Shown here: positions 3,268 to 49,455 of the stretch, one piece after another
Layout: each line of letters begins with the position of its first letter
Numbering within the stretch: the stretch's first letter is position 1
Notes under the pieces: generated by a model
Told to the model about the DNA's origin: nothing
The model's input: only the letters and a program-made list of their open reading frames with translations
Databases searched by the model: none
Translations under genes and position numbers: made by a program
Virus record (IMG/VR): IMGVR_UViG_2571042390_000001
Reading direction: 5' to 3' (one strand)
DNA: 64,000 nucleotides
From: a virus
Taxonomy: Duplodnaviria; Heunggongvirae; Uroviricota; Caudoviricetes

Positions 3268-3570
3268 TCACAGAGCTGCGCCGAATAGACCGCAGCATGG
3301 CATCCCTTCATCACAGTACCTGGCCCATTCTTTTTGGCATTCTTCTGTTTGCGCGTATTGGCTTAACGCGTCATCCAGCATATCCCAGGCCTTATAGGAA
3401 TCCTCTGCAACGCTAAACAAAGTCCTGCCTTCCCGGCTTAGAATTTGCAGATTGTAAATGTTTTCATTGCTCAGACATGCGCGGCTGATATGCATGTAAA
3501 CCGACCATGCAGGAACTCGATTTTTGATAGCAAGTTGGTGTAATTTGGAATTAATTAAAGAGCTTTTCAT
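3268..3570 (-). CDS. Hypothetical protein (about 100 aa)
   Basis: GGAG RBS 7 nt upstream of the ATG encoding MKSSLINSK; track ORF extends further to 3621. Confidence 0.4.
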   Translation of the reverse strand: MKSSLINSKLHQLAIKNRVPAWSVYMHISRACLSNENIYNLQILSREGRTLFSVAEDSYKAWDMLDDALSQYAQTEECQKEWARYCDEGMPCCGLFGAAL

Positions 3571-5449: not shown

Positions 5450-6448
5450 ATGCAATCACTGAATACTGTTACGGATCGCTTCTCCCTGGTAGAGAAAATC
5501 CGCAAACACACACCGCAGAACAACCGAAATTACGTCATTCAGTCGGTACGAGACACATTCAACTCGCCAGAAACAAAAGAGCGTATCGCGCTGGGTGAGA
5601 TGTATGGTTATTACGGTCATGGTCGCCGGGCGATGCACTATAACAAAACGAAAAGCCTGAACTTGCCGGAAGTCTCTGTTGTGATGGTAGATGGGAAGCC
5701 TGTTGTATTGGAGAACGTGCCGTCAAACAGGACTATCGACATTTCGATTGACGACAACGGCATTGTTACTCATACGCAGGAAATACTGGATACAGACACC
5801 GGGCGTATTGTTCAGGGCATGATTAATTCTGGTGCTGGTGGTTGGTCGTGGGCTACATCTGGTCCAGATTCATCGGTATCCCTGGTAAAGTCTTTCCACG
5901 GCTTTGATTACGTAACTGTGCCTAACTATATCAGCCTCGACAAGAAAAGCCTGATGCTTGAATCAGCAGAAGAGCGCGATGCGGCTATTCATGCAGCACT
6001 TATCGAACAAGGTTTTACCGATAACGCTGCTACGGATCTGGTTCACCACTTTTCAGCAATGAAAAATCAGCAAGCCATGCTCGAATCTGCACATCGTGAA
6101 GCCCTGGAATCAGAATTGATGCTCCTTGAAGTGGAAAACATACAGCTTCGAGATAAGCTGCGCGCTCAAACAGCGATGATGGAAAGCCAGGGGGAAAATG
6201 CAAAGCAATACCGCCGGATTTTGCGTGAAGCTATCCAGGAAATGCCTGTTTTTATCAGCGCAGAACAGCGCCGGGCGCTCTGCCGTATGCAGTCTGAAGA
6301 TGATGCCCGCATAGTGGCTGCGATGCTTGAATCTCTTGGGGCAAATGCTACTTATGGCTTACCGGTATCAGGCAAGAAAGAACCAGAGTTATCACCGAAG
6401 GAGAACAAAAACACTACCCCGTTACTCTTCGTTTCCAGAAGGGGGTAA
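5450..6448 (+). CDS. Hypothetical protein with C-terminal coiled coil (possible scaffold or head-processing role)
   Basis: Heptad-like region LMLLEVENIQLRDKLRAQTAMMESQ; tight linkage to upstream ORF. Confidence 0.45.
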   Translation: MQSLNTVTDRFSLVEKIRKHTPQNNRNYVIQSVRDTFNSPETKERIALGEMYGYYGHGRRAMHYNKTKSLNLPEVSVVMVDGKPVVLENVPSNRTIDISIDDNGIVTHTQEILDTDTGRIVQGMINSGAGGWSWATSGPDSSVSLVKSFHGFDYVTVPNYISLDKKSLMLESAEERDAAIHAALIEQGFTDNAATDLVHHFSAMKNQQAMLESAHREALESELMLLEVENIQLRDKLRAQTAMMESQGENAKQYRRILREAIQEMPVFISAEQRRALCRMQSEDDARIVAAMLESLGANATYGLPVSGKKEPELSPKENKNTTPLLFVSRRG

Positions 6449-6466
6449 TCGCCTTGTTAAGTTAAA

Positions 6467-6475
6467 TTTCTAACA
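6467..6475. promoter_or_regulatory. Operator-like motif TTTCTAACA (candidate C1-type repressor site)
   Basis: One of about 15 intergenic copies of the same core; upstream of ORF 6649. Confidence 0.45.
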
Positions 6476-6562
6476 TAGTGTATTTATATACACTGTTGAT
6501 CCTGGTGGATGGGATCGAGTAGGATCGCGGTCACTGCTCCGGTAGCGACTGCCAAAAAAGCA

Positions 6563-6590
6563 AAAGCCGCTTCTCAGCGGCTTTTTGGGT
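6563..6590 (+). terminator. Rho-independent terminator (possibly bidirectional)
   Basis: aaagccgc/gcggcttt stem flanked by an A-run and a T-run. Confidence 0.6.
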
Positions 6591-6648
6591 GTATAAATCC
6601 ACTGCCATAGATTTATACGGTAGATAGATTTTTTCACGGAACTATCTG

Positions 6649-7611
6649 GTGAGTATTTTAAATTCAGTTTCAGTAACTTTCAACACTTCTGAGTATAAAA
6701 ACAACACTGAATACCACAAAAAAATCAAAGGTCATCAGTTGAGTTTTTTTGCTCGTCATAGCGGTCTTCTTTCCCCTTCACATAGCGCCATTATTGCCGA
6801 GTTCGCCAACCTGGCAGGGTCTACCGATGAATACATGATCCGTCGCTCATATGCTGATATGTCCGAGATTACAGGACGCAGTATTTCTACTGTGCGCCGG
6901 GCATTTGCTGAAGCGACGAAGTGCGGAATGCTTGTTAAGCAACATCAGGTAGCGAATAACAATGCCCAGGTGTGTAACGTATATCGGTTTACGACACAAT
7001 TTCTCCACTTCATTCATGTAGCAATGGAGATAGGGGGTAAGCAGGGCATCAAATTTGCCAACGCCACAAAACTGGTTAAGCAGTTGATTTCAAAGGTTCG
7101 TTATTTTTTTGAAACTGGGAACCCCCTGTTCAAATTGAACAAGTCCCCCCATGTTCAAAATGAACAGCCAATAGAAAATAAGAGTCACTCTATAGCCAAA
7201 AGAAGAGAAAGATCATGCGCGGTTCAGCCAAAGGCTTCACCTGCAGATAGTTCTCAAACGGATAACGGGGTACTGGATAAAAAACCAGTAATCAGGGAAG
7301 AACATACCAACCACTGCCTGGCGGCGGCAAAAGCGAGAGCTGCAAAGCGTCGTTCAGACGAGGGGCACGCAAAACGGCAGGCTCTGTATCGTACCGCTGA
7401 AAATCTGGCAAAAAAATTTGCATGGATACGTAGTGCCGCTACCGCAGTGAATAAGCCTAAACAATCCAGTGCCCTAGATTTCTCAATGGATTATTCTGGC
7501 TCCCAGGGGTGTGCAACCATTGGTGAAGCCTTTGACCTGATGAAACAGCGTGGCTATCGGTCTGAATTTGACCGTGAGGATTGGTCAATCCCTGCGGGAT
7601 TTAGGGGATGA
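6649..7611 (+). CDS. Putative DNA-binding protein (320 aa)
   Basis: HTH-like segment RSISTVRRAFAEATKCGMLV; operator-like motif upstream. Confidence 0.45.
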   Translation: MSILNSVSVTFNTSEYKNNTEYHKKIKGHQLSFFARHSGLLSPSHSAIIAEFANLAGSTDEYMIRRSYADMSEITGRSISTVRRAFAEATKCGMLVKQHQVANNNAQVCNVYRFTTQFLHFIHVAMEIGGKQGIKFANATKLVKQLISKVRYFFETGNPLFKLNKSPHVQNEQPIENKSHSIAKRRERSCAVQPKASPADSSQTDNGVLDKKPVIREEHTNHCLAAAKARAAKRRSDEGHAKRQALYRTAENLAKKFAWIRSAATAVNKPKQSSALDFSMDYSGSQGCATIGEAFDLMKQRGYRSEFDREDWSIPAGFRG

Positions 7612-7674: not shown

Positions 7675-7899
7675 ATTAATTTGCTGTTTCTAAAACGGAA
7701 TGTATGATCTGCATCATCGACTGAAGTCATCCATTGCTGAAATTTTTAGTTGATCTTCCATGTTTTCAGGCTTATATTCATGCCGTCGTAGCAAATTCTG
7801 CGACCGGGTTTGACAGCCTGAATGTTAGTGCGGACAACCGCAGATTTCCGATATTGCGGTATTTTTGTGTCCGTAAACCGCGTTACGCCCGAATTATGG

Positions 7900-8000
7900 T
7901 GGGGCGTGATGGGGAGGCTTCGGCCTGCTGGTTTCACTAACGCCAGTCTGTCAACCCTGTCACGTCCTGCCACCTGTTTGACAGCGGGTGGCAGGTTGTT
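7900..8000 (+). ncRNA. Candidate c4-like antisense regulatory RNA (immI type), copy 1
   Basis: Non-coding region before icd-like gene; hairpin about 7966-7995; segments about 7921-7926 and 7935-7941 complementary to RBS region about 8007-8019. Confidence 0.35.
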
Positions 8001-8024
8001 AAACCTGTTAGTGAGGCCGTAACT

Positions 8025-8249
8025 ATGGTTAATGCCAATCCTTGCTCACGTCCAGAATTCATCTGGCGTTTCCACTCCCTGCAAAAACGCTGCGATCACT
8101 TCGCAATTGCCGCAACCGAAAAAGAAGCCCGTTCTCTGATCCCTGATCAGCATGGTGTTCTTACTGGTCGTTTCTCTACTTCCCCACAACCAAACACTAA
8201 TCCCTGGTATCGCAATATTACCAATCCCGGCATTGCGGAGGCTCACTGA
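8025..8249 (+). CDS. Icd-like small protein (host cell-division inhibitor Icd-like family)
   Basis: EFIWRF motif; stop overlaps start of the Rha/Ant-like gene; paralog at 48299. Confidence 0.55.
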   Translation: MVNANPCSRPEFIWRFHSLQKRCDHFAIAATEKEARSLIPDQHGVLTGRFSTSPQPNTNPWYRNITNPGIAEAH

Positions 8250-8956
8250 TGGGTATCTGCATTCTCGAAAAACTATCAATGACCAGCATTGAGATTGCGG
8301 AGCTGGTGGGAAGCCAACACTCTGACGTTAAACGTAGTATTGAGCGTATGGTTGCTCGAAGCATTATCCGAAAACCGCCAATGGCTGTTTTCGAAAAAAT
8401 CAATAACTTAGGATTGCGTCGTGGCGTTGAGGCTTACGTCTTCGAAGGCGAGCAAGGCAAACGAGACAGCATCATTGTCGTCGCGCAGCTCTCTCCCGAA
8501 TTCACCGCCCGGCTGGTGGACCGCTGGCGCGAACTGGAAGAACAAGTACGCCAGCCGTTGACCGAAATAGAGATGATCGCTGCAATGGCTGCGAATGCAG
8601 TTCAGCAGCAAAAGCTGATTCATGCTGTTGAGTCAAAGGTTAGCCAGGTCGCTGAAACCGTCGAGCAAATAAAGAAAGGCAATATTCCGGAAGGCTACAT
8701 TGGCTACCGCCAGTTGGCGGCGAAATGCGGCCTGACTGAAGCCAAATGCCGAAACCTTGTCAACGCTTACCGGATTCCCACCGATACACATGAGTTTTTG
8801 ACTCCAGAGGGGGTATTGTCGCGTCGTTCCATCGTGGCCTTATCTCCCTTCATGAATGCTTTTAACCGGATGATGTCGGAGGCTGAACACCGAGGAAAAC
8901 GCTGGTATCACCCCAAAATGGGGCAATTCCAGGTGATCGGTTGGGGAGGTGAGTGA
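8249..8956 (+). CDS. Rha-family phage regulatory / antirepressor-like protein
   Basis: N-terminal TSIEIAELVGSQHSDVKRSIERMVA Rha-type signature; occupies the ant position of an immI-like module. Confidence 0.6.
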   Translation: MGICILEKLSMTSIEIAELVGSQHSDVKRSIERMVARSIIRKPPMAVFEKINNLGLRRGVEAYVFEGEQGKRDSIIVVAQLSPEFTARLVDRWRELEEQVRQPLTEIEMIAAMAANAVQQQKLIHAVESKVSQVAETVEQIKKGNIPEGYIGYRQLAAKCGLTEAKCRNLVNAYRIPTDTHEFLTPEGVLSRRSIVALSPFMNAFNRMMSEAEHRGKRWYHPKMGQFQVIGWGGE

Positions 8957-9153
8957 TGGACATCATGCAGGCGGTAAAAAAAATCAGGGAAGGACAGGCT
9001 GAAGTGTGCCGCCGTAAAGCATGGAGTGTTGGTGTATGGGCCTGGCCTGATAATTACTCTACTACCGGATGGTTTTGTATTAATGGACTCCAGATCCGGG
9101 AAGTTGATTTATCGACGGCTGATATAGTCGGTAATGATTGGATCGTGACTTGA
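8953..9153 (+). CDS. Small DUF2829 (Tad2-family)-like protein
   Basis: AVKKIREGQAEVCRRKAW and C-terminal ADIVGNDWIVT signature; 4-nt overlap with Rha gene; same domain is fused to Rha in 48514..49455. Confidence 0.5.
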   Translation: MMDIMQAVKKIREGQAEVCRRKAWSVGVWAWPDNYSTTGWFCINGLQIREVDLSTADIVGNDWIVT

Positions 9154-9162
9154 AGCGTGATG

Positions 9163-9186
9163 CCCCGGCCTGGCCGGGGCTTTTTT
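9163..9186 (+). terminator. Rho-independent terminator
   Basis: ccccggcc/ggccgggg stem followed by T6. Confidence 0.65.
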
Positions 9187-9671
9187 CATGCCTCATTAGT
9201 TGAGGTTGCTGCGTCTCCGACTGGTAACAGGGCGGTATTGCGTGGTTCGCCAGCAGGCCAGCGATAGCCAGACACTCTTGATGTTGGGAATGCGCGAATA
9301 TTAACCGCATCCCCCTGGTTCCCACCCAGGACAAGCAGATCGCCATTGGCGCGGCGTCCGACAACGAAGCCTACGTGCCCACCGCCTACGCGGGTAAATA
9401 CAACGATACATCCGTATGCCGGTGTATCTAATTTCTCGCCCCAATCCAGATAGGATTTTGCCGACTCAAATCTTGTTGAGCGAATGCCTACACGTTCCAG
9501 CATTGCACCGACAAATGCTGCGCACCACGGCGTTTCATCGTCTTTAATTCCGCCGCGCTTGATGTCGCGCCAGAACTGAACGATTTCAGGGTTGTGTTTA
9601 GCGCCTTTTATTTCAGTCAAGCCAATGTGCTTACGGGCTTCAATTAGCCAGCGAGGTTCAATGTTTGCCAT
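9186..9671 (-). CDS. NlpC/P60-like (TIGR02594-type) putative peptidoglycan hydrolase
   Basis: Candidate catalytic Cys (PWCAAFV) and His (GGHVGFVVG) motifs. Confidence 0.5.
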   Translation of the reverse strand: MANIEPRWLIEARKHIGLTEIKGAKHNPEIVQFWRDIKRGGIKDDETPWCAAFVGAMLERVGIRSTRFESAKSYLDWGEKLDTPAYGCIVVFTRVGGGHVGFVVGRRANGDLLVLGGNQGDAVNIRAFPTSRVSGYRWPAGEPRNTALLPVGDAATSTNEA

Positions 9672-9822: not shown

Positions 9823-12800
9823 TTGGACAAACTACTTCATTCAATCAGTGAAGCCTCCAGCTTAGGCGAACTGATTGAAATTGTTAGTCGGTTGCATAAA
9901 TTACGTGCTGTTGCGACCTTTGGCGTCAGGAAAGCCGATGGCGTCAGTATTCAGAAAACACGCCGGGCAGCAAACAATGCCGCAGTAAATCTTCTTAATT
10001 CCCTTCCGCCCGGCTTCGATGGGGCGAAATTAACTGACGAACAACGTCAGATTCTTGCTGGGTATACCGGTGAAGGCGGCCTGACAGATGGTGAGGGCAG
10101 CCAATACGAATACTACACGCCACAGTTTATGGCTGAAGGTATATGGGAGCTGTTTGCTGACTACGGTATTGATGGCGGTCACGTACTGGAACCATCAGCT
10201 GGCACGGGTATTTTCCAGGAGACAAAACGGCAGGGAATGATAATGACCAGCGCCGAGCTGTCTCCGATCTCCGGTCGAATCAACCAGCTGTTGCACCCGG
10301 AAGACGATGTGAACATTGGGGCGTTTGAGGCTCTGGCGGCGAAAGACGCAATGTATGACCACGCTGTTGGTAACGTACCGTTTGGCGAAGGCCGTTCCGG
10401 CGTTGCAGGGCTTGATCCGGCATATGCAAACGAGAAGAACGTTGGCAATTACTTTGTGCTGCGCACGATCGACAAGGTTAAACCTGGTGGGCTTATCGTA
10501 TTGGTGGTGCCGAATGGCATGACTGATGGTACGAAATACAAAAAATTGCGCGATAAAGTCAGCCGTAAAGCGGAATTTTTGGGCGCGCATCGTATGCCTT
10601 CCGGTACGTTCAGTGAATCAGGTACAGATACCGTGGTGGACGTATGGGTATTGCGTAAACACCCGGAAGCCTTCCTGGAGATGATCCCCGATACGGATGA
10701 TTCGACGCTCAAATCGGCAAACGTCCTTTGGGTTACCTTCCTCAAAGGGAAATGGTTTACAACCGAAGGGAAGCGATTTGTTTACGGCGACATGGAACGT
10801 ACCAGCTTCCGCAATACCCTAGTGGTGAAAAAAGACGGTCGTGTATCCAATGAGTCGATGAAAACCGCGCTATCTCGTCGCTTTGATAGTCGCATCAATT
10901 GGGATTTGCTCGGCGTAACTACTCAGGCATGGCAGGGCGCGAAAGTGGGCGATAAACGCCTTGTAGGCGGTATCTGGCATGAGTTTGATGGTCTGAAATG
11001 GGTTCAGGACACGACAACCAAATCCTCCGCGCTTGATGTAAGTCGATATGGTGTTTCGACGTTTGGCGATCTGCAGATCGCGTTCCAGTCAACAAACGGG
11101 ATTCTGGCTTTGTCATGGGACCAGATATCGGCGATCGCGTCCGACTATCCATCGGTTGTCAGTGATGAAGTGGCAGCAATGATTCGCTTTGCTGGCAAGC
11201 AGCGAGAAAAAGACAGGGAGCGCGTTATGCGCGGTGCACTGATAGGTCAGTTGATCAACAAGGCACTTGATTTGCGTAACCTGGGGGTGAACGTTGATGA
11301 CAAACTGGCAGATGCATCCCGCTTGGCGGCAGCAGAAGTTGCGAAGTATGGACCACCGCACGCGATTAAGCTGAATGGGCTTGCTGAAGCTGGCGCTAAA
11401 AACTGGATGACGTTCACTGGCAATGTGAAACAGGATGGTTCCACTTCTGACCTTCTGGCAGGGCGACTTGATGTAACGGATGGTGCTGCCGGTATTGACT
11501 TTACGCGTCCTGAACAAGTGATAGCACATCTTTTTAGTGATGTAGCCCTTAATCCTATAACGCTGGGCGACTTTCGTGAGGCGTTTGCTGGTGAACTGCC
11601 AGAGGACGACGACGCGGTCCTTGAATACCTGGCGAAATTTGATGATATCGCTATTGATGGGTATGGCTGTCTGCTGCCGATGGACCGCGCCACCAGCGGC
11701 GATGTTGCAACCAAAACAGCACTGCTGGTGGGCTGGCGTGATGCGTCAACAGGTGAGCAGAAAGCGAACTTTGAGCGTCAGTTGGCGAAAATCGAAGAGA
11801 AACGCATTTTCACGCCACTAAATAAAGTCACCGTTAATCTGAATGCCCGCTGGCTGGATCGCCGCTTGATAAAAGAGTTCCTGGCAGAGCAGGGCTATGA
11901 CGAGTTTAAGTACACTGAACCTGATCTGAAGGTCGTCGATGGCATTCTGGTATCTCCGGACGATTACGAAGGTAAGGACGGGGTATTTACCGGCTATCAG
12001 CTACGAACCGTAAACGGCAAAAACGGGAATGAGTTCAAGAAGGCCAACAATAAAGACGGCTTCCTGAACCAGTTAGAAAACTACCTGAACGGTGTTAAAC
12101 CGCGTGGGCAGAACGCTAACGAGTACCTGGATAAAATTGCTCAACTGGAAGTTAGCTTTAACGACTGGTTACGCACCCACCCGCAGGCGGATCAGATAGC
12201 CCGTGACTATAACGACGCATTCAATGGTTTCATTCCGTTCACACATTCTGACGCACCGCTTGGCCTGGAAGGGATTAGTGGAAAGCGCATTCCTCTGACT
12301 TATCAGAATGAAGAAGTTCGGCGCTTGTCAGAAGATGGGCGTGGCATCATGGGATTTGGTACCGGGCTGGGTAAAACCACGACCGCGCTTGCGCTTGAGG
12401 CGTATAACTTCGAAACAGGTCGCACTAAACGCACGTGTATTGTTGTTCCGAAGGCGGTTTATCAGAACTGGTATCACGAGGCACAGAGTTTCTACAGTGC
12501 TGATGCCTTCGCCAATATGATGTTTATCGGTTTGGATGAAGTTCGTGATGACAGCGGAAATATTCTGACCGCGCCGGTGCTTGATGAAAATGGCGAACCA
12601 CGCCTCGACAGTAACGGGCAGCCTCTTACCAGAAATGTTGTGAAAGAGTCCTCCAGCGCCGTTATCGTTCAGCGTATGAACATGATCCCGTCGTCAAATT
12701 GGCGAACGGTCATCATGACAAAAGAACAATTCGCGTCTATCCCGCTACGAGAAAAAACCATCGAGGAGAACTCACAGCAAGCTGTCTTTAATGCTGTGGA

Positions 12801-15800
12801 AATGGGGCGTCTTGACCTGGCGTCCGGTAAACACCGTGATGCGCAGAAGAAGAACAAGATTAAGGATCAGGCCGCGAATACCGGTACAACGAAGAAGCAG
12901 AATATCCCTTACTTTGAGGATATGAACTTCGATAGCGTGATTGCCGACGAGGGGCATAACTACCGCAACTCCTTTAATGCCGGGCGTGAAGCGGGACAAC
13001 TGGCATATTTGCCTAACCCGGCAGTATCCAAGATGGCCCGCGACATGGCTGTAAAAGCTGCGTACATGATGAAACGCAACAACGGGCGTGGTGTAGTCAT
13101 GCTGACGGCAACACCGCTGGTGAACAGTCCGATTGATGCCTTCAACATGCTGTCTACTGTCATTCCGCAGGAAGAGTGGATGCGTATGGGCATCATTACG
13201 CCTGATGATTTCGTTCGTGTGTTTGGCAAAACAGCCACAGTTCAGGTCCAGAAAATTTCCGGGGAAGTGGAAGAGAAGCAGGGGCTGGTGGGCTTCCAGA
13301 ACCTTGACGGCCTGCGTGGTATTTTCCATCGTTGGACCACTCTGAAGACTGCTGCAGATGTCGGAGCGACGGTTAAAATTCCCGACATCATCGAGAACAC
13401 CTTGCAGATCCCGATGACAGGGGAGCAGGAGACTGCTTATGAAGAGCTTCGTAAGCGTGCTCAGGAGTTAAGTCGCAATGATGAGCTGACAGTCGATGAA
13501 AACGGGCATATCACTAACGACAAACCGGATGATTTCATCTTCTCCATCATCCGTGACATGGATAAGGTTGCTATAGACCCGGATCTGTATGCCAGTGCGA
13601 TTACATTCCAGTTCCCCGTTGAGCTTGCAGACCAGGTAAAAGCTATTGCTGATGCCTTGCCAAAAGTAGCTGGCGGTAAAGTGGCAGATGATGTTGATGA
13701 GGCCGAGGAAGACGGCGCTGGCGGGCTGGTCAGTACGCGTACCAGCAAGGTAGTGAAGACCGCTTTTAGTGAACATCCGACGCATGTTGAAATACGTGCC
13801 AGCATTGAACTGGAAGCTGAAATACTGAAGGCCATTGCGGCTGCCGGCATTGATATGCAGCAGGTGTCGCACCCCATCCCGCCGAAGTATGCCGCGCTGA
13901 TCGAAAATCTTCGTGAAGGTCTGAAGAACGGTAAGCAGATCGTCTTTATTGATGAAAAAGCCCAGCACCAGAAGCTGCGCCGTATTATCGCCAGTGCACT
14001 GCAAATGCCGGAGCAGGAGATTGGCATTATCAATGCGACGACAGTTAGCCAGGCTGGTGGCATCAAGCTGAAGAAGGTGAATAAGCCGACCGAACCTACT
14101 CCAAACAAAAACGGTGAATACAAAGAAGGGGCATGGGAAACCTACTACAGCAAACTTGCCCAATATGAGGATTATCTCTCCGCTAAAAATGATGCTGGCC
14201 TTGAGGGCATGGAAGGTATTGCCGCCGACTATAACGAAGGTCGCACGCGCATCATAATCTGTAACAAGAAGGCTGAAGTAGGTATTAACCTGCACATCGG
14301 GACAACCGATATCCACCACCTGACACTACCCTGGACACCAGCCAGTATCGACCAACGAAATGGGCGCGGTGCGCGCGTAGGTTCACCGCAAGAAAAGGTC
14401 AATGTTCACTACTATTGTGGCAAAGGCACATTCGACGACTTCCGTCTGGATACGCTGAAACGTAAGAAAGACTGGATCAAGATGGTGATGACATCCGACA
14501 TGTCAGAGATCGCCAATGGTGATGCGGATGATGCTGATGAACGCGCCATTATGCTGGCGGCAAACCCGGAAGAACGCCGCGCAATCATGGCTCGCCAGGC
14601 GCAAGAGCGTGAAGAACGTCTGAAACTGAAAGCACAGCGCGAGGCCAACAATGCTCTCGATATCTACCTGAAAGCGGCAAACGCCGCCGGAAAAGATATC
14701 GGCATGATGGAGACAGAACTGAAAAGCGCGATGGAACAGATAGAGTATTACCAGCGCAATCTTGACGACCTGATAAAAGCGGGTACGAACAGGAATGGGC
14801 AAAAATACGCGCTTGAGCAGTTGAGTAGCTACAGAAAACGTGCGCGGGTGCTGCGGTTTGCGATCACCAGGGCAAAAGACGCGGATACCATAATGAAACG
14901 CTCTCGTGGTGATGTGGAGCGCGCTATTAAGTCTGGTGTGCTGGATATCAGTATCGATGTTATTCAGAACCCACAGGAATATATGCGCACTGACAAGAAT
15001 ATCCTGTTGCATAAAGGTAGTTATTACCGTGCAGTCATTGATGATCGCGAAACAACAGCGATTGTCCGGGTGGAAAAAATTGACGGTGAAAAAGCACAAT
15101 ACCTCTGCCGTATCGCCTGGCTGGATAGAGCAAGTCGTTACGCTCGAGCACCGGGGTCAATCGTTACATTGCCGTTTGACTCTGTGATTGAAGCGGTAAC
15201 TTTTGAAGAGGGGGTAGCTGAATCGCGCGCAACGGCTGCGCGTGGTGTTCAGTGCCACCAGCTATCAACAATACTTACTCGCGATCAGTTCTATGATGCT
15301 ATTCGCAATGGGGTAATGAATGTTATTGCTGGTAAACCTGGTAATGCATGGGGCGGTGGGTCAGCTATTAAATACTGGGCATATCGCACAGATGATGGTC
15401 AGATCGCGCTGTCATCGGCCTATGATGGCGTGATAGGCCAAAAAATCGGGCGAGCATCGGATATAGCACCTGAGCGATGGATATATCCTGATGGCAACGA
15501 CGAGGCGCTGAAGCGTGAAGTGGCAAAAATACAAGCCAGTGATAACCCGCTGAATATCGTGGACGGCGAGGGATTCCTCCAGGCATTGTATGGGTATGAT
15601 TACACCCAGGGAATGCAGGCATGGGGCGCACAGGCAACGATGGATGATGTTGCCCATGAGTTCGAAAACTGGATGGCTGGGCGTGGTCTGTCAGGTCGTT
15701 CGCTTAATAAAGTCACTTCTGAAGATATTCTTAGCTTGTTCCGCAAACCGTCCGGAGAAGGTCTGGAATCATTCTGGAGGACCGTGCTGGCATACCGTTT

Positions 15801-16659
15801 ATTCCAGGGCAGGATGAAAGCCTTTAGCAATATCGATGATATTGAACGGATGTTTAATCAGGTCAAGATCGCGAAAATTAAGGCGAAGATCGAAAAAACA
15901 CGTTCTGCGCTGGTGGCCTGGCGCGATGCATTGTTTGAGCAATATAAATCACTCAGTGATGCAGATGGATGGGCGGCATTGGAACAGCTGGCGAATAATG
16001 GGGTAGATGGAGCGAAACTCGCCATTGTTCAGGCTGATAACCCCCTGGAATCACCGGCAGCACAGTGGATTAAGGTGGGGGCTGTCATCAATGCATTTGA
16101 TGAAAAACACATTAGTAAGGACGATTTTGCTGATGCTGTTTCTGTTAATCGCCTGGTAGAAATGGCTACCCGCCGCGCCCGTGAGTTGAAAGACGGCGAC
16201 TATGTGAATGAGTTGCCGGATACGCTCAAATCGGCAACGTGGCAGGACTATGTATCGCTGAAAAACGGCGGGGCCACTGAATCAGAGATCGCGGAAAGGC
16301 TTGAGCAGGCTGAAAGCAAAAGAGAAGAGCAGGCGGCAGTGGCTGAAGCCAGAGCTGATGAAGCGGCGAATGATGACTATATCATTGTGGTTAATGATAA
16401 GCCGATTCGCGCTAAGGCGCGTGTTCGCGGGCGCTGGTGGAGCGTCAGCGAGGACGTTGGCGCGGTTTATCTCATTGCCGACCAACCAGGTTCCTCGACA
16501 ATACGGAACGCCAAAGACGCGATTAAGAAGATTGGCGGACGTTTCTGGAATTTTGAAGCAAACCCGGTTGCTGATGTGAACTTTGACCGTCCTGCATGGA
16601 TGGTATCTACGCGTTACTCGGTAGATGAACTGCGTAAAATAATCGCCGATGCGGCCTAA
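9823..16659 (+). CDS. darB: DarB-like antirestriction protein: N6-adenine methyltransferase fused to SF2 helicase (2278 aa)
   Basis: LEPSAGTG (SAM motif I), NVPFG (motif IV), Walker A GTGLGKT, DEGH box ADEGHNYRN, motif VI QRNGRGAR; TTG start with GAGGGGG RBS. Confidence 0.8.
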   Translation: MDKLLHSISEASSLGELIEIVSRLHKLRAVATFGVRKADGVSIQKTRRAANNAAVNLLNSLPPGFDGAKLTDEQRQILAGYTGEGGLTDGEGSQYEYYTPQFMAEGIWELFADYGIDGGHVLEPSAGTGIFQETKRQGMIMTSAELSPISGRINQLLHPEDDVNIGAFEALAAKDAMYDHAVGNVPFGEGRSGVAGLDPAYANEKNVGNYFVLRTIDKVKPGGLIVLVVPNGMTDGTKYKKLRDKVSRKAEFLGAHRMPSGTFSESGTDTVVDVWVLRKHPEAFLEMIPDTDDSTLKSANVLWVTFLKGKWFTTEGKRFVYGDMERTSFRNTLVVKKDGRVSNESMKTALSRRFDSRINWDLLGVTTQAWQGAKVGDKRLVGGIWHEFDGLKWVQDTTTKSSALDVSRYGVSTFGDLQIAFQSTNGILALSWDQISAIASDYPSVVSDEVAAMIRFAGKQREKDRERVMRGALIGQLINKALDLRNLGVNVDDKLADASRLAAAEVAKYGPPHAIKLNGLAEAGAKNWMTFTGNVKQDGSTSDLLAGRLDVTDGAAGIDFTRPEQVIAHLFSDVALNPITLGDFREAFAGELPEDDDAVLEYLAKFDDIAIDGYGCLLPMDRATSGDVATKTALLVGWRDASTGEQKANFERQLAKIEEKRIFTPLNKVTVNLNARWLDRRLIKEFLAEQGYDEFKYTEPDLKVVDGILVSPDDYEGKDGVFTGYQLRTVNGKNGNEFKKANNKDGFLNQLENYLNGVKPRGQNANEYLDKIAQLEVSFNDWLRTHPQADQIARDYNDAFNGFIPFTHSDAPLGLEGISGKRIPLTYQNEEVRRLSEDGRGIMGFGTGLGKTTTALALEAYNFETGRTKRTCIVVPKAVYQNWYHEAQSFYSADAFANMMFIGLDEVRDDSGNILTAPVLDENGEPRLDSNGQPLTRNVVKESSSAVIVQRMNMIPSSNWRTVIMTKEQFASIPLREKTIEENSQQAVFNAVEMGRLDLASGKHRDAQKKNKIKDQAANTGTTKKQNIPYFEDMNFDSVIADEGHNYRNSFNAGREAGQLAYLPNPAVSKMARDMAVKAAYMMKRNNGRGVVMLTATPLVNSPIDAFNMLSTVIPQEEWMRMGIITPDDFVRVFGKTATVQVQKISGEVEEKQGLVGFQNLDGLRGIFHRWTTLKTAADVGATVKIPDIIENTLQIPMTGEQETAYEELRKRAQELSRNDELTVDENGHITNDKPDDFIFSIIRDMDKVAIDPDLYASAITFQFPVELADQVKAIADALPKVAGGKVADDVDEAEEDGAGGLVSTRTSKVVKTAFSEHPTHVEIRASIELEAEILKAIAAAGIDMQQVSHPIPPKYAALIENLREGLKNGKQIVFIDEKAQHQKLRRIIASALQMPEQEIGIINATTVSQAGGIKLKKVNKPTEPTPNKNGEYKEGAWETYYSKLAQYEDYLSAKNDAGLEGMEGIAADYNEGRTRIIICNKKAEVGINLHIGTTDIHHLTLPWTPASIDQRNGRGARVGSPQEKVNVHYYCGKGTFDDFRLDTLKRKKDWIKMVMTSDMSEIANGDADDADERAIMLAANPEERRAIMARQAQEREERLKLKAQREANNALDIYLKAANAAGKDIGMMETELKSAMEQIEYYQRNLDDLIKAGTNRNGQKYALEQLSSYRKRARVLRFAITRAKDADTIMKRSRGDVERAIKSGVLDISIDVIQNPQEYMRTDKNILLHKGSYYRAVIDDRETTAIVRVEKIDGEKAQYLCRIAWLDRASRYARAPGSIVTLPFDSVIEAVTFEEGVAESRATAARGVQCHQLSTILTRDQFYDAIRNGVMNVIAGKPGNAWGGGSAIKYWAYRTDDGQIALSSAYDGVIGQKIGRASDIAPERWIYPDGNDEALKREVAKIQASDNPLNIVDGEGFLQALYGYDYTQGMQAWGAQATMDDVAHEFENWMAGRGLSGRSLNKVTSEDILSLFRKPSGEGLESFWRTVLAYRLFQGRMKAFSNIDDIERMFNQVKIAKIKAKIEKTRSALVAWRDALFEQYKSLSDADGWAALEQLANNGVDGAKLAIVQADNPLESPAAQWIKVGAVINAFDEKHISKDDFADAVSVNRLVEMATRRARELKDGDYVNELPDTLKSATWQDYVSLKNGGATESEIAERLEQAESKREEQAAVAEARADEAANDDYIIVVNDKPIRAKARVRGRWWSVSEDVGAVYLIADQPGSSTIRNAKDAIKKIGGRFWNFEANPVADVNFDRPAWMVSTRYSVDELRKIIADAA

Positions 16660-21092: not shown

Positions 21093-21167
21093 GATGGTGT
21101 AGCTCAGCGGTAGAGCAGTTGGCTGTTAACCAACTGGTCGGTGGTTCGAATCCACCCACCATCGCCA
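21093..21167 (+). tRNA. tRNA-Asn (anticodon GTT)
   Basis: Cloverleaf: acceptor GATGGTG/CACCATC, T-arm GGTGG-TTCGAAT-CCACC, anticodon loop CTGTTAA, 3' CCA. Confidence 0.8.
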
Positions 21168-21172
21168 ATTTA

Positions 21173-21259
21173 GGGGAGTTAGTCCGTAGGGGTAGCGGGG
21201 TAGACTGTAAATCTACTGTCATTGCGACTCGGGTGGTTCGACTCCATCACTCCCCACCA
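21173..21259 (+). tRNA. tRNA-Tyr (anticodon GTA), long variable arm
   Basis: Acceptor GGGGAGT/ACTCCCC, anticodon loop CTGTAAA, type II variable arm, 3' CCA. Confidence 0.7.
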
Positions 21260-21263
21260 AATT

Positions 21264-21339
21264 GCCGGTTTAGCTCAGTTGGTAGAGCAGTCGCTTTGTA
21301 AGCGAATGGTCAGCGGTTCGATCCCGTTAACCGGCACCA
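21264..21339 (+). tRNA. tRNA-Thr (anticodon TGT)
   Basis: Acceptor GCCGGTT/AACCGGC, D-arm TAGCTCAGTTGGTAGAGC, anticodon loop TTTGTAA, 3' CCA. Confidence 0.8.
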
Positions 21340-21408
21340 ACACAACAGGTAAGAGCATTTGTAGAGTTCGACTCTCTACCGTGGGCTTTTTCCCGCGATG
21401 CGAGCCAT

Positions 21409-21439
21409 AAATGCTCTTACCGTTGTGATGAAGTGCAGC
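21409..21439. repeat. tRNA-array-associated repeat, copy R1
   Basis: aaatgctcttaccgttgtgatgaagtgc; 3' strand of a long hairpin that follows tRNA-Thr. Confidence 0.4.
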
Positions 21440-21650
21440 TCTTTGAAGCAACCAGAAGATAAGCATCTGGCTTCACAACATAAACCGCAGGAACGACCAA
21501 TAAACGGTAGTCCGTATGGAGAACACCCCGTTGAGGAAGAGGTCTGGCCGGAACCGTAACCGGCACTACAACGTTGAGAACACTGGCGTAACGGGGTCAT
21601 ATCCCAATCTACGAATAAATGTTGCGTTGCAGCGTGACAACCAGTGTTCT

Positions 21651-21674
21651 CAACATTGTGGTGAATGCGCAGGC
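21651..21674. repeat. tRNA-array-associated repeat, copy R2
   Basis: caacattgtggtgaatgcgcaggc; preceded by inverted repeat gttgagaacactgg/ccagtgttctcaac. Confidence 0.35.
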
Positions 21675-21793
21675 TGATGCGCGAAAGACATTGCAGCTAT
21701 TGCGGAAAAGAGCTGTTCGGCGGGGCAATTAAACGCCCGTGAGAGTCTGAAATAACCGCAAGCCGGAGATCAGCACCGGTCGCCACAATAACG

Positions 21794-21880
21794 GGAGAGT
21801 AGGGAGCATGGTGCTCAAGCGGTCTTGAAAACCGTCCCATTGCGCAAGCGATGATGGTTCGATTCCATTACTCTCCGCCA
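21794..21880 (+). tRNA. tRNA-Ser (anticodon TGA), long variable arm
   Basis: Acceptor GGAGAGT/ACTCTCC, anticodon loop CTTGAAA, type II variable arm, T-loop TTCGATT, 3' CCA; position 8 atypical. Confidence 0.6.
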
Positions 21881-21974
21881 GTGCAACATTAAGGGTATTT
21901 GGCTAATTAAGCGAATGCCGGAAGCAGAACCGGATCACCAAATGCGTACAGGCGTCATCGCCGCCCAGTCAGCC

Positions 21975-22004
21975 AAATGCTCTTACCATTGCGGTGAATG
22001 CGGC
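21975..22004. repeat. tRNA-array-associated repeat, copy R3
   Basis: aaatgctcttaccattgcggtgaatgcggc; follows tRNA-Ser. Confidence 0.4.
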
Positions 22005-22171
22005 TAAGCGCACGCGGAACAGTTAAAACAGTAAAGGTGGTCTTTTTACTGGCGTAACGAGAATCCATAAGTGATCCGGCGTTAATTGTTAACTGGTTAA
22101 CGTCACCGGGAGGCGCCCGGCACCGCAACCTAACAGCAATGGCGTTTTGTCTTAAAAGGTGGCTGCAAGTG

Positions 22172-22300
22172 ATGGATTTTTGGGCGTTTGCCGATAAAAA
22201 CCCGGAGTGGACATTATTGTTTCTGCTGGTGGTTGCATACGGGGTAGAGCAAGCGGCAAAAGCCTTACGCGGTTCTGGCAAAAAGCGTAAGCGTAATTAA
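22172..22300 (+). CDS. Small hydrophobic ORF (42 aa) inside the tRNA cluster
   Basis: AGGTGG RBS 8 nt upstream of ATG; predicted TM segment WTLLFLLVVAYGV and basic tail; below track size cutoff. Confidence 0.25.
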   Translation: MDFWAFADKNPEWTLLFLLVVAYGVEQAAKALRGSGKKRKRN

Positions 22301-22309
22301 CAGTAATCT

Positions 22310-22385
22310 GGCCCTTTAGCTCAGTGGTTAGAGCGGGCGACTCATAATCGCACGGTCACCGGTTCAAGTCCGGTAGGGGCCACCA
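22310..22385 (+). tRNA. tRNA-Ile2-like (anticodon CAT; may read AUA after lysidine modification, or be tRNA-Met)
   Basis: Near-identical in outline to E. coli ileX-type tRNA: GGCCC(T)TTAGCTCAGTGGTTAGAGC ... CTCATAA ... GGTTCAAGTCC ... CCA. Confidence 0.75.
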
Positions 22386-33996: not shown

Positions 33997-34217
33997 TATC
34001 GGTTAACCAGTTCCTTGTTGGTGGAGTCCAGGGTGTCAAACAGGGATGCAAATTCAGCATCCAGCGCCGCCTTTTTGTAGGCTTCGAAAGTAGCCTTGCT
34101 GACAATTACTGCTGGTTCACGGCCTCTGCGGGTGATTTCAACCTCTTCCCCGGCTTCAACATTGTTGAGCAATTCAGAAAGGTTGCCGCGCGCGGTACGG
34201 AAGTTAATAGATTGCAT
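33996..34217 (-). CDS. phd: Phd antitoxin (prevent-host-death)
   Basis: [15 protein letters not shown] ... matches P1 Phd as recalled; start taken at the ATG two codons inside the track ORF. Confidence 0.9.
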
Positions 34218-47497: not shown

Positions 47498-48091
47498 TTT
47501 TAAGTTGAATTGAAAAACTCTCCGATGTACATTCACTACCGATTGGCACACCGGTCAACTTTTTGAGACAAACTGTTTAGTTTTTCGTATTATTGCCTCC
47601 GCCATACCTATGGCGGTGCAATATAGGTGGCTGAAAAGCCCCCGTTGACTCACGGTGTTCCAGCCTTTATTGCGCCGCCACCAGACCGTGGAACAGTCGA
47701 TGGCGGCTCCGAAAGCAAGGAGTCACAACACTATGAACAACTACAGTCTTTTCCCATCACTCGTCTTCCACCACTCACGCGATAATCTGCATTCTTTGCT
47801 CGCGCCGGGGGTGTCAAAATGACTGTTCGCTACCTCAACTTTCAAATCAAGAACATTACTGGCGGTTGCTATGACTGGTTTGTCACTCTCGGAAAAGAAG
47901 TGATCACCGGGAAGCTGGATGAAGTGAAAGCTAAAGCAATGGCCTACGCCTGCAAGCAAGTCAGGAAGAAATCCGCCAAAGCATAAAATACTGACTGTTG
48001 CGCCCTGGCATTATCGTGGGGTATATTTCTACGGCACCTTAGAAAAACGGGTGCCGGGATTGGAACCCCGGATAATGTCAAAGGCGACACA

Positions 48092-48113
48092 GACGCCGAA
48101 CGCGTCTTTTTTT
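48092..48113 (+). terminator. Rho-independent terminator
   Basis: gacgc/gcgtc stem followed by T7. Confidence 0.5.
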
Positions 48114-48149
48114 GTGTCATGCCATCGCACAGCCATACTTAGCGTTTAG

Positions 48150-48260
48150 CTCAGAGATCAATGGTAGTGCTGGCTGGGCTGCCGAAAGGCAGGCCGGTTC
48201 CCTTTGACGCCGGTAGTTCCAACCCAGTCAGTGCTACCGCCATTGAGATTGGAACCTCAC
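48150..48260 (+). ncRNA. Candidate c4-like antisense regulatory RNA, copy 2
   Basis: Segments at about 48187-48191 and 48200-48206 complementary to RBS region of icd-like gene 2 (about 48280-48294). Confidence 0.35.
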
Positions 48261-48298
48261 GCGGTAGCTCCTTAACTTAGTCAAAGGAGGCTGCCAAT

Positions 48299-48514
48299 AT
48301 GGCTACTATCCCTACCCCAACTCATTCTGAATTTATCTGGCGTTTCTATTCCTGCCAAAAACACCTGTATATCTGCGTCATGGCTGCTACCGAAGCAGAG
48401 GCGCGCTCATACCTTCCCGAAGAACCCTGCATTTTTGCTGCTCGCTTCACTCTTGATGCGATGGAGATCCTCAATTACTGGAATCTGCCGATGAACTGCG
48501 TGGAGGTGCACTGA
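48299..48514 (+). CDS. Icd-like small protein (paralog of 8025..8249)
   Basis: SEFIWRFYSCQKH motif; stop overlaps start of downstream gene. Confidence 0.55.
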   Translation: MATIPTPTHSEFIWRFYSCQKHLYICVMAATEAEARSYLPEEPCIFAARFTLDAMEILNYWNLPMNCVEVH

Positions 48515-49455
48515 TGAATCTGTCCATCTCTCAAAAAGCGACAATGACCAGTATTGAGATCGCGGAACTGGTGGGAAGTCGTCACTCTGATGTTAAACGC
48601 AGCATCGAAAGACTTGTTGCTAAAGGAGTTATCCAACATACGCCATTGGCTACAGTTGAGAATAATCAATCACTTAGCCCTAATAAATACACAAAAGCCT
48701 ATTTCTTCGAAGGCGAACAAGGCAAGCGCGATAGTATTGTCGTCGTCGCGCAGCTCTCTCCCGAATTTACCGCCCGGCTGGTGGACCGCTGGCGCGAACT
48801 GGAGAATGCCCGGGTACAGTTAAAATCAAAAGCCGAAATCCTGGCTGAAATGGCGCAAATGCATCTTGAGCATGAACGCCGGATCAACGCCGTAAATGCC
48901 CAGGTAGCCGAGGTATCGGCACAAGTGTCCAGGGTCGCTGAAACCGTTGAGCAAATCAAGAAAGGCAATATGCCGGAAGGCTACATTGGCTACCGCCAGC
49001 TGGCGGCGAAATGTGGCCTGACTGAAGCCAAATGCCGTAACCTTGTCAACGCTTACCGGATTCCCACCGATACACATGAGTTTTTGACCCCCGATGGCTT
49101 GCTTGCGCGACGCTCCATTGTGGCCCTTGCCCCCTTCCGGAAAGCCTTTAAGCAGGTGATGTCGGAGGCAGAACCACGCAATAAACGCTGGTATCATCCA
49201 AAGATGGGGATGTTTCAGGCAATCCACCATCCTGTGCCTGAAAGCCCAAAGGATAATCTGTCACTACATACCGCCAGAGAGAAGATCAGGACTGGATACG
49301 CAACAGTGTGTCGTCGTTCTTCCTGGCCTGAAGGTATATGGGTGTGGCCCGAAGGTGGATCACGAAAGCACTGGCGCACCATCCGTGACGGGAAAATCCA
49401 TGCTATTGATTTAGCTCCAGAGGATGTTATTGCTATGGACTGGATTGTTAGTTAA
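48514..49455 (+). CDS. Rha/antirepressor-like protein fused to C-terminal DUF2829 (Tad2-family)-like domain
   Basis: N-terminal TSIEIAELVGSRHSDVKRSIERLVA; C-terminal VCRRSSW ... EDVIAMDWIVS aligns with separate ORF 8953..9153. Confidence 0.6.
   Translation: MNLSISQKATMTSIEIAELVGSRHSDVKRSIERLVAKGVIQHTPLATVENNQSLSPNKYTKAYFFEGEQGKRDSIVVVAQLSPEFTARLVDRWRELENARVQLKSKAEILAEMAQMHLEHERRINAVNAQVAEVSAQVSRVAETVEQIKKGNMPEGYIGYRQLAAKCGLTEAKCRNLVNAYRIPTDTHEFLTPDGLLARRSIVALAPFRKAFKQVMSEAEPRNKRWYHPKMGMFQAIHHPVPESPKDNLSLHTAREKIRTGYATVCRRSSWPEGIWVWPEGGSRKHWRTIRDGKIHAIDLAPEDVIAMDWIVS

Follow-up and report, generated by a model that had tools for sequence, protein, structure and literature searches.

Two C4-type antisense RNA modules with different recognition sequences on a D6-like plasmid prophage

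The 64,000-nt viral sequence IMGVR_UViG_2571042390_000001 (hereafter the window, meaning the whole stretch of DNA that was analysed) contains two operons, near 8 and 48 kb, in which a non-coding region precedes an icd-like gene and the gene for a Rha-type antirepressor. In phages P1 and P7 the immI c4 antisense RNA controls icd-ant (Citron and Schuster 1990). The locus raises the question of whether each of the two regions encodes such an RNA, which of its bases would contact the target, and whether either RNA would recognize the target of the other. With a probability of about 75%, these are two complete immI-type operons on a D6-like plasmid prophage, in each of which a C4 RNA silences its own antirepressor.

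The whole window was scanned with Rfam at gathering thresholds (45 bits for C4 antisense RNA, RF01695; 50 for isrK, RF01394; 46.7 for c4-a1b1, RF03163). This covariance-model check, suggested when the regions were first proposed to encode c4-type RNAs, was positive in both. RF01695 was matched over its full length (model positions 1-87), above the gathering threshold, at 7892-7977 (+) with 68.8 bits (C4-1) and at 48157-48244 (+) with 77.1 bits (C4-2). The minimum free energy (MFE) structures of C4-1 and C4-2 have a long closing stem around two adjacent hairpins and a single-stranded junction, a shape that recurs in most of 87 unique homologs, and the sequence of C4-1 is identical to that of P1 c4 (P1 locus L005). 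Judged by family match and predicted fold, both regions encode genuine C4 antisense RNAs.

The P1 GenBank record NC_005856 annotates sites a1 and b1 upstream of c4, a2 directly 3′ of it and b2 at the icd ribosome binding site (RBS). As read from the sequences, the P1 code is a = TTGACAG and b = GTTAGTG and the P7 code a = TTAGCAG and b = GATTGTG, and the partner regions within P1 and P7 C4 are the single-stranded junction after hairpin 2 (a′) and the hairpin-2 loop (b′). The a1, b1, a2 and b2 sites of module 1 match those annotated in P1, and module 2 has the same four target sites in another sequence. In C4-1, the hairpin-2 loop holds b′ (TCACTAAC, 7934-7941) and the junction holds a′ (CTGTCAA, 7948-7954); their downstream complements are b2 (GTTAGTGA, 8007-8014 (+)), placed over the Shine-Dalgarno (SD) sequence GTGAGG from the P1 annotation and from complementarity, and a2 (TTGACAG, 7978-7984). 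In C4-2, b′ (CCTTTGAC, 48201-48208) and a′ (GTTCCAA, 48216-48222) are complementary to b2 (GTCAAAGG, 48280-48287 (+)), over the SD sequence AAGGAGG, and to a2 (TTGGAAC, 48249-48255). These complements are exact over 7-8 nt in both modules, and none of 20,000 mononucleotide shuffles of the flanks regenerated both downstream sites of either module. Each a2 site lies in the loop of an alternative hairpin formed with the 3′ strand of the C4 closing stem, at 7966-7995 (+) in module 1 (CCTGCCACC with GGTGGCAGG, a 9-nt complement) and at 48233-48268 (+) in module 2 (GCTACCGC with GCGGTAGC).

A second copy of each code lies upstream of the C4 RNA. In module 1 this is an IsrK homolog at 7785-7866 (+), whose a1 (TTGACAG, 7810-7816) and b1 (GTTAGTG, 7824-7830) are exactly complementary to a′ and b′. 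It was matched by c4-a1b1 at 7772-7824 with 55.2 bits and, over its full length, by the isrK model with 44.5 bits (7785-7866; E 1.4e-8), under the gathering score of 50. Its 3′ end is a CCGCAG..GCGGU hairpin with a 12-nt loop and a U-run, which aligns with the terminator of the isrK model and went uncalled by the terminator scan. In module 2 the IsrK-type element occupies 48034-48112 (+), with a1 (TTGGAAC, 48060-48066) in a hairpin loop and b1 (GTCAAAGG) at 48077-48084; here isrK scored 61.3 bits, the c4-a1b1 model gave a sub-threshold match (E 0.0017), and the scan called a terminator-like site with a U/T-run at 48091-48107, between a1/b1 and C4-2.

The original prediction had placed both contacts at the RBS, through two segments 8 nt apart in each module. 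These segments are indeed present: CGGCCT (7921-7926) and CACTAAC (7935-7941) are complementary to GTTAGTG followed by AGGCCG (8007-8019, with AGGCCG at 8014-8019) before the ATG at 8025, and GGCAG (48188-48192) and CCTTTGA (48201-48207) to TCAAAGG (48281-48287) and CTGCC (48291-48295) before the ATG at 48299. Of each pair, the segment in the hairpin-2 loop (CACTAAC, CCTTTGA) is the canonical b′; the other (CGGCCT, GGCAG) belongs to the 3′ arm of hairpin 1, which does not co-vary with its supposed target. The layout itself was not borne out, in that the second site, a′, pairs with a2 some 25-30 nt upstream of the RBS; the a′/a2 contact, the duplicate a1/b1 sites and the second conserved hairpin had been overlooked. 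By the P1 annotation and by co-variation among the 87 modules, the true target contacts are those of b′ with b2 at the SD sequence and of a′ with a2 in the hairpin loop just 3′ of C4.

Support for these contacts comes from co-variation across the family. IMG/VR was scanned for an exact pattern, the conserved 5′ sequence of isrK, which gave 120 loci, and nhmmer with a seven-sequence seed found 125 C4 copies. After reduction to unique modules 87 were left, among which there were 21 different junctions, 36 different hairpin-2 loops and 47 different a′/b′ combinations. Each C4 element was scored by its longest exact complement in its own flanks, the control being the flanks of modules in which that element differs. 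Since MAFFT would be unreliable in placing the variable a and b sites, nhmmer together with a structural parser and this swapped-module control was chosen over a purpose-built covariance model and alignment-wide pair counts. A complement of at least 7 nt to the a′ junction was found in the upstream flank of 98% of modules (swapped, 0.6%) and in the downstream flank of 94% (swapped, 1.3%). For the b′ loop the corresponding values were 72% upstream (swapped, 0.6%) and 77% downstream (swapped, 1.1%), and in most modules the distance from b2 to the start codon is 9-11 nt. The hairpin with a2 in its loop is likewise a family feature, a complement of at least 7 nt between the closing-stem 3′ strand and downstream sequence being present in 79% of modules against 5% after swapping.

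The same concerted change is visible among close relatives. The second module of the P1-like phage RCS47 is 89% identical to that of the window, and its a1 (TTGAGAC), a′ (GTCTCAA) and a2 (TTGAGAC) have all switched together. In a set of 15 near-identical D6/RCS47-type sequences, the three a sites (a1, a′ and a2) shift jointly and the three b sites (b1, b′ and b2) do likewise, each of two a codes being found alongside each of two b codes. Four of the five variable columns in the 88-nt C4 of these sequences fall inside a′ or b′, and the share of variable columns is higher in the six sites as a whole (12/45) than elsewhere (22/232; Fisher p = 0.003).

The two modules of the window differ in both halves of the code, module 1 having a = TTGACAG and b = GTTAGTG and module 2 a = TTGGAAC and b = GTCAAAGG. 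Predicted duplexes between a site and its own partner had energies of -8.4 to -12.7 kcal/mol, and those between sites of different modules had energies of -0.9 to -5.2; duplexes of the C4 core with the leader came to about -29 to -31 (own) and -12.5 to -16 (cross). When both modules were compared, no cross-module complement reached 7 nt and none fell on an a or b site. The codes of modules 1 and 2 are predicted from these energies to be orthogonal, in agreement with the initial proposal of two specificities that do not cross-react, as in P1 versus P7, where a handful of bases within the a and b sites likewise sets the specificity. Since the codes are predicted not to cross-react, each antirepressor would have its own lock.

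Downstream of each C4 RNA lie an Icd-like open reading frame (ORF) and a Rha-type antirepressor gene, as expected from the first reading of the window and now supported by NF033153, PF09669 and phrog_63 matches. The icd-like ORF of module 1 (8025-8249 (+), 74 aa) matched NCBIfam NF033153 with 38.4 bits and that of module 2 (48299-48514 (+), 71 aa) with 49.4 bits (cutoff 25); both belong to phrog_1426. Each is joined to the antirepressor gene by the stop/start overlap TGATG (8247-8251 and 48512-48516). Antirepressor 1 (Ant1; 8249-8956 (+), 235 aa) matched PF09669 with 30.6 bits (cutoff 29.9) and phrog_63, 'anti-repressor Ant', with an E value of 1e-46, and is labelled 'Rha family transcriptional regulator' by PGAP; antirepressor 2 (Ant2; 48514-49455 (+), 313 aa) matched with 32.7 bits and 2.5e-62, respectively. 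The two are 68% identical on alignment. A phrog_7385 domain is fused to the C terminus of Ant2 (residues 252-312; window 49267-49452 (+)) and is encoded in module 1 as a separate 65-aa ORF 3′ of Ant1 (8956-9153 (+)), to which no function is assigned; neither version had a Pfam or NCBIfam match. A terminator-like hairpin with a T-run, found by the terminator scan, closes module 1 at 9162-9190 (+). At the other end of module 1, a putative promoter (TTGATC, 17 nt, TATATT; 7750-7778 (+)) was found by consensus scan at the position equivalent to the annotated P1 promoter P1c4 (P51b). The consensus scan called no promoter in module 2, where a candidate -10 hexamer, TATATT (48022-48027 (+)), with a weak -35, lies 7 nt upstream of the isrK start and was assigned by reading the sequence and aligning it with the Gifsy-1 and F039 promoters. 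Use of the antirepressor protein to find further modules was tried and dropped; antirepressors 3′ of C4 share 15-21% identity outside the D6 pair.

Both operons accordingly present one order of parts: promoter, IsrK-like a1/b1 element with a terminator or terminator-like hairpin at its end, C4, a2 hairpin, b2/SD, icd-like gene and translationally coupled Rha-type antirepressor gene. By analogy with P1, we infer that each C4 would be cut from its own leader transcript (by RNase P, to a length of some 77 nt) and would then pair in trans, the junction a′ with a2 and the hairpin-2 loop b′ with b2. This pairing would block ribosome entry at the icd-like gene, and through coupling and polarity the block would shut off synthesis of the antirepressor, so that lysogeny would be kept. 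Sharing its code with the targets, the a1/b1 element could, as a short terminated RNA such as IsrK in Gifsy-1, pair with C4 as a decoy and relieve repression. The likeness to P1 immI is close, since C4-1 is P1 c4 and both modules have the arrangement a1b1-C4-a2-b2/SD-icd-ant with a coupled icd/ant start; the differences are the Rha-family antirepressors, the D6-like element and the presence of a second module with another code.

Several observations weigh against this reading. The antirepressors are of the Rha type, which departs from the P1 analogy. In P1 a C1-controlled operator (Op51/Oc4) lies upstream of the c4 promoters. The P1 C1 operator consensus ATTGCTCTAATAAATTT had no match with three or fewer mismatches anywhere in the window, an operator specific to D6 not having been searched for, and in the absence of a P1-type C1 operator the upstream control would therefore differ from that of P1. 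The 87 modules are phylogenetically non-independent. In Gifsy-1, constitutive expression of orf45/STnc1160, an RNA that occupies the position of C4, strengthened IsrK-mediated growth arrest, and the cis a1 mutations G28A and G31A raised basal translation of the antirepressor, which the authors explained by a structural switch and translation of an ORF starting inside what is here C4 (PMC4825925).

The Gifsy-1 results form the basis of the alternative that survives best. The Salmonella system isrK-orf45(STnc1160)-anrP (Hershko-Shalev et al. 2016, PMC4825925) resembles module 2 in having an IsrK RNA with a terminator (in module 2 a terminator-like site), a C4 and an antirepressor operon, and differs in its code (a = TTGGCGT, b = ATCACCG) and in being without an icd-like ORF. 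In our scan of Gifsy-1 (L004, NC_010392.1), a full-length Rfam C4 match of 69 bits was found at 34131-34214 on the minus strand, between isrK and anrP, along with an isrK match and an overlapping c4-a1b1 match. The C4 match coincides with the published orf45/STnc1160, the orf45 AUG (nt 107) lying inside the C4 5′ stem, and the published IsrK-orf45 pairs G28-C162, G31-C159 and C18-G173 map to the C4 junction and 3′ stem. The hairpin-2 loop, CGGUGAU, is complementary to ATCACCG at the anrP SD sequence, a pairing left out of the published model, which treats the C4 region as mRNA (PMC4825925). That work found a stable processed RNA, STnc1160, at the C4 position, proved IsrK pairing there by compensatory mutations, and showed that the short IsrK RNA activates the downstream antirepressor in trans (PMC4825925). 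Its authors regarded IsrK as a structural homolog of P4 SeqA and likened STnc1160, downstream of and complementary to IsrK, to CI; the IsrK-C4 connection was therefore partly anticipated, P1 c4 itself going unmentioned (PMC4825925). A 2025 review still treats IsrK and c4 as separate systems.

If module 2 worked as published for IsrK, and not through an antisense repressor acting in trans, the read-through RNA would be locked by pairing of a1/b1 with C4 in cis and opened in trans by the IsrK-like RNA, after which translation of an orf45-like frame would drive downstream translation. The Gifsy-1 genetic and structural data (PMC4825925) speak for this, and in the MFE structure of the 48034-48310 transcript a1/b1 pair with b′/a′ in cis. 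An ORF at AUG 48161 matches Phage_ASH, and in 62 of the 87 modules its frame continues without a stop as far as the downstream gene. Such a lock, though, leaves unexplained why a2/b2 co-vary with a′/b′ as tightly as a1/b1 do. The ORF of the window ends 19 nt before the icd-like ATG, the corresponding frame in module 1 and P1 stops after 14 codons, inside b′, and the Ash nucleotide sequence is conserved where the amino-acid sequence is reported not to be. We regard this alternative as possible but unlikely.

The frame at 48161-48280 (+) is annotated as the 39-aa 'ash family protein' WP_071526433.1, which is the translation of C4-2 from an AUG in its 5′ stem and occurs also in a second contig (L127, 532-651). 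It scored 32.2 bits against Pfam PF10554 Phage_ASH (cutoff 26), its start codon is the counterpart of AUG107 of Gifsy-1 orf45, and in the 62 modules with an open frame it runs in frame into the downstream gene. The Ash ORF is either a by-product of the conserved RNA or a real upstream ORF.

According to a further alternative, C4-2 would behave like the CI RNA of P4, its pairing with the flanking sites causing premature transcription termination and no translation block. The P4 CI RNA/seqA/seqC region is alike in having a processed small RNA flanked on both sides by copies of its own target, and PGAP and Pfam 'Ash' annotations overlie the C4 region; it differs in the mechanism ascribed to CI, premature termination of transcription (PMC4825925). 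Besides the SeqA and CI comparisons of the IsrK authors (PMC4825925), this alternative can draw on the putative intrinsic terminator between a1/b1 and C4 and on tandem C4-icd units beside a primase-like gene in a satellite-like contig. Against it, b2 lies consistently over the SD sequence, 9-11 nt from the start codon, and therefore points to translational control. In P1, transcriptional polarity is reportedly secondary to the translation block (Biere et al. 1992). As an exclusive mechanism, termination appears improbable; translation block and premature termination are compatible and not mutually exclusive.

The pairing scheme first proposed, in which the icd-like RBS would be clamped jointly by the 3′ arm of hairpin 1 and, 8 nt away, the loop of hairpin 2 as the specificity determinants, is doubtful to much the same degree. 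Both complementarities do occur in both modules with equal 8-nt spacing, duplexes of -11.8 and -10.6 kcal/mol are predicted to be possible, and the lineages whose arms match are exactly those on P1/D6-type phage-plasmids. Family-wide, though, the arm does not co-vary: complements of at least 6 nt were found downstream in 11% of modules (swapped, 6.3%) and upstream in 5% (swapped, 10.7%). A match of at least 5 nt in the spacer between SD and ATG occurs in 4 of 28 distinct types, against a swapped rate of 7.9%, and all four belong to the P1/P7 or D6/RCS47 lineages, the two represented in the window. The spacer GGCTGCC is retained in many modules despite varying hairpin 1, including ten other hairpin-1 types in which it has no complementarity; the match is therefore lineage-specific, and selection for it is unsupported. 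The arm is moreover base-paired within a GC-rich tetraloop hairpin, and the P1 annotation puts the second contact at a′/a2. The complementarity of the arm is probably incidental; a role as a lineage-specific third contact, to which nothing but its presence in these two lineages points, is improbable.

That one module is a decaying, functionless duplicate is very improbable: Ant1 and Ant2 are paralogs at 68% identity, and Ant1 lacks the C-terminal domain that is a separate ORF in module 1, yet in both modules the four target sites and the canonical fold of C4 have been retained, the ORFs are intact and the start codons are coupled, both modules are conserved in D6 at 93-96% identity, and the concerted compensatory change at the module-2 sites requires selection.

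The preferred reading, of two complete immI-type operons, places both on one element. Window positions 40000-64000 are 100% identical (24 kb compared) to pB2C_96, a circular 96,149-bp Escherichia coli plasmid (NZ_CP035876.1) that also bears module 1, with a Rha family regulator and an Icd-like protein annotated at 5938-6869; both modules therefore reside on one replicon. The closest named phage is the P1-like plasmid prophage D6 (96.4% identity in module 1, 92.7-95.6% in module 2), and on these matches the replicon is a member of a known phage-plasmid family, a D6-like plasmid prophage. D6 is the same type of element, with both modules at 96% and 93-95% identity, and differs in its module 2 code, which is a = TTGAGAC and b = GCAAAAGG, against TTGGAAC and GTCAAAGG in pB2C_96, a difference from which heteroimmunity of the two at module 2 is predicted. 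Elsewhere in the window, four tRNA genes are clustered at 21093-22382 (+) (Rfam tRNA matches at 21093, 21173, 21264 and 22310), and plasmid matches across 40000-64000 include a glnS annotation (glutamine--tRNA ligase). A 2278-aa ORF lies directly downstream of module 1 (9823-16659 (+)); its D6 counterpart is annotated as a putative peptidoglycan hydrolase/baseplate hub and tail lysozyme.

Two specificities on one element had been thought unusual, and this proved not to be so. Both modules occur in D6, RCS47, JL22 and pB2C_96, the P1-like phages RCS47 and JL22 having the canonical c4-icd and a second isrK-C4-icd-ant module, which in RCS47 sits between pacB and c1. The module-1 RNA region was matched by 575 plasmid records and the module-2 region by 343, and two C4 copies lie within a few kb of each other in 6 of 119 loci examined, tandem C4 units being present in other prophage-like contigs too. 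A second antisense-RNA/icd region in the D6-like plasmid pYU39_89 was reported in 2019 (PMC6799933). The two-module arrangement is thus common and already noted in the literature, and the feature belongs to a known family.

Four of the paired loci have C4 units 480-850 nt apart, each with its own code (L038, 2743/3220; L086, 2902/3380; L040, 8469/9317; L073, 8231/9091). In L038 an icd-like ORF follows each C4 and a primase/helicase-like ORF of 582 aa comes after the pair, an arrangement suggestive of a P4-like satellite or island. A natural deletion was seen in another contig (L017, IMGVR_UViG_2579778873_000001, ~3553-3570, minus strand), where the isrK 5′ half is fused at the repeated GATTGGAACC (a1/a2) straight to the leader, so that C4 is lost; the icd-like start codon of this locus is ATC in place of ATG.

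RefSeq labels the two regions only through an 'ash family protein', Icd-like proteins and Rha regulators, where complete c4-type RNA immunity switches would be the apter description, and the 'ash family protein' is flagged here as a probable annotation of RNA as protein. Since the c4 of the plasmid is identical to that of P1, the two are predicted to be co-immune at immI. Together the a and b sites act like a combinatorial code, one that diversifies while its match is maintained at three places in each module. The Rfam families isrK (RF01394, in no clan) and c4-a1b1 (RF03163, clan CL00128) overlap at 48034-48112, at 7772-7866 and in Gifsy-1, and they appear to describe one RNA element; the IsrK, c4-a1b1, C4 and P4-CI literatures likewise appear to describe one architecture. 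This comparative result gives predictions, specific enough to test, of cross-talk between phage-plasmids and chromosomal prophages. A broader view can be put forward tentatively, as a minority possibility: C4 modules would all belong to a single large family of RNA address codes, each in two parts, common to P1/D6 phage-plasmids, lambdoid/Stx prophages, Gifsy-1 and P4-like satellites, in which the a1/b1 RNA is a code-matched anti-antisense that titrates C4 and fires the antirepressor. At least 47 a/b combinations occur in a single sample of viral contigs. If this is true, Gifsy-1 orf45, together with a portion of the Pfam/PGAP 'Ash' family, would for the most part represent translated C4 RNA, and an element with two codes, here that of P1 and one of lambdoid type, would be connected to two distinct networks of immunity and induction. 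Any co-resident element with a matching code could then silence or trigger it in trans.

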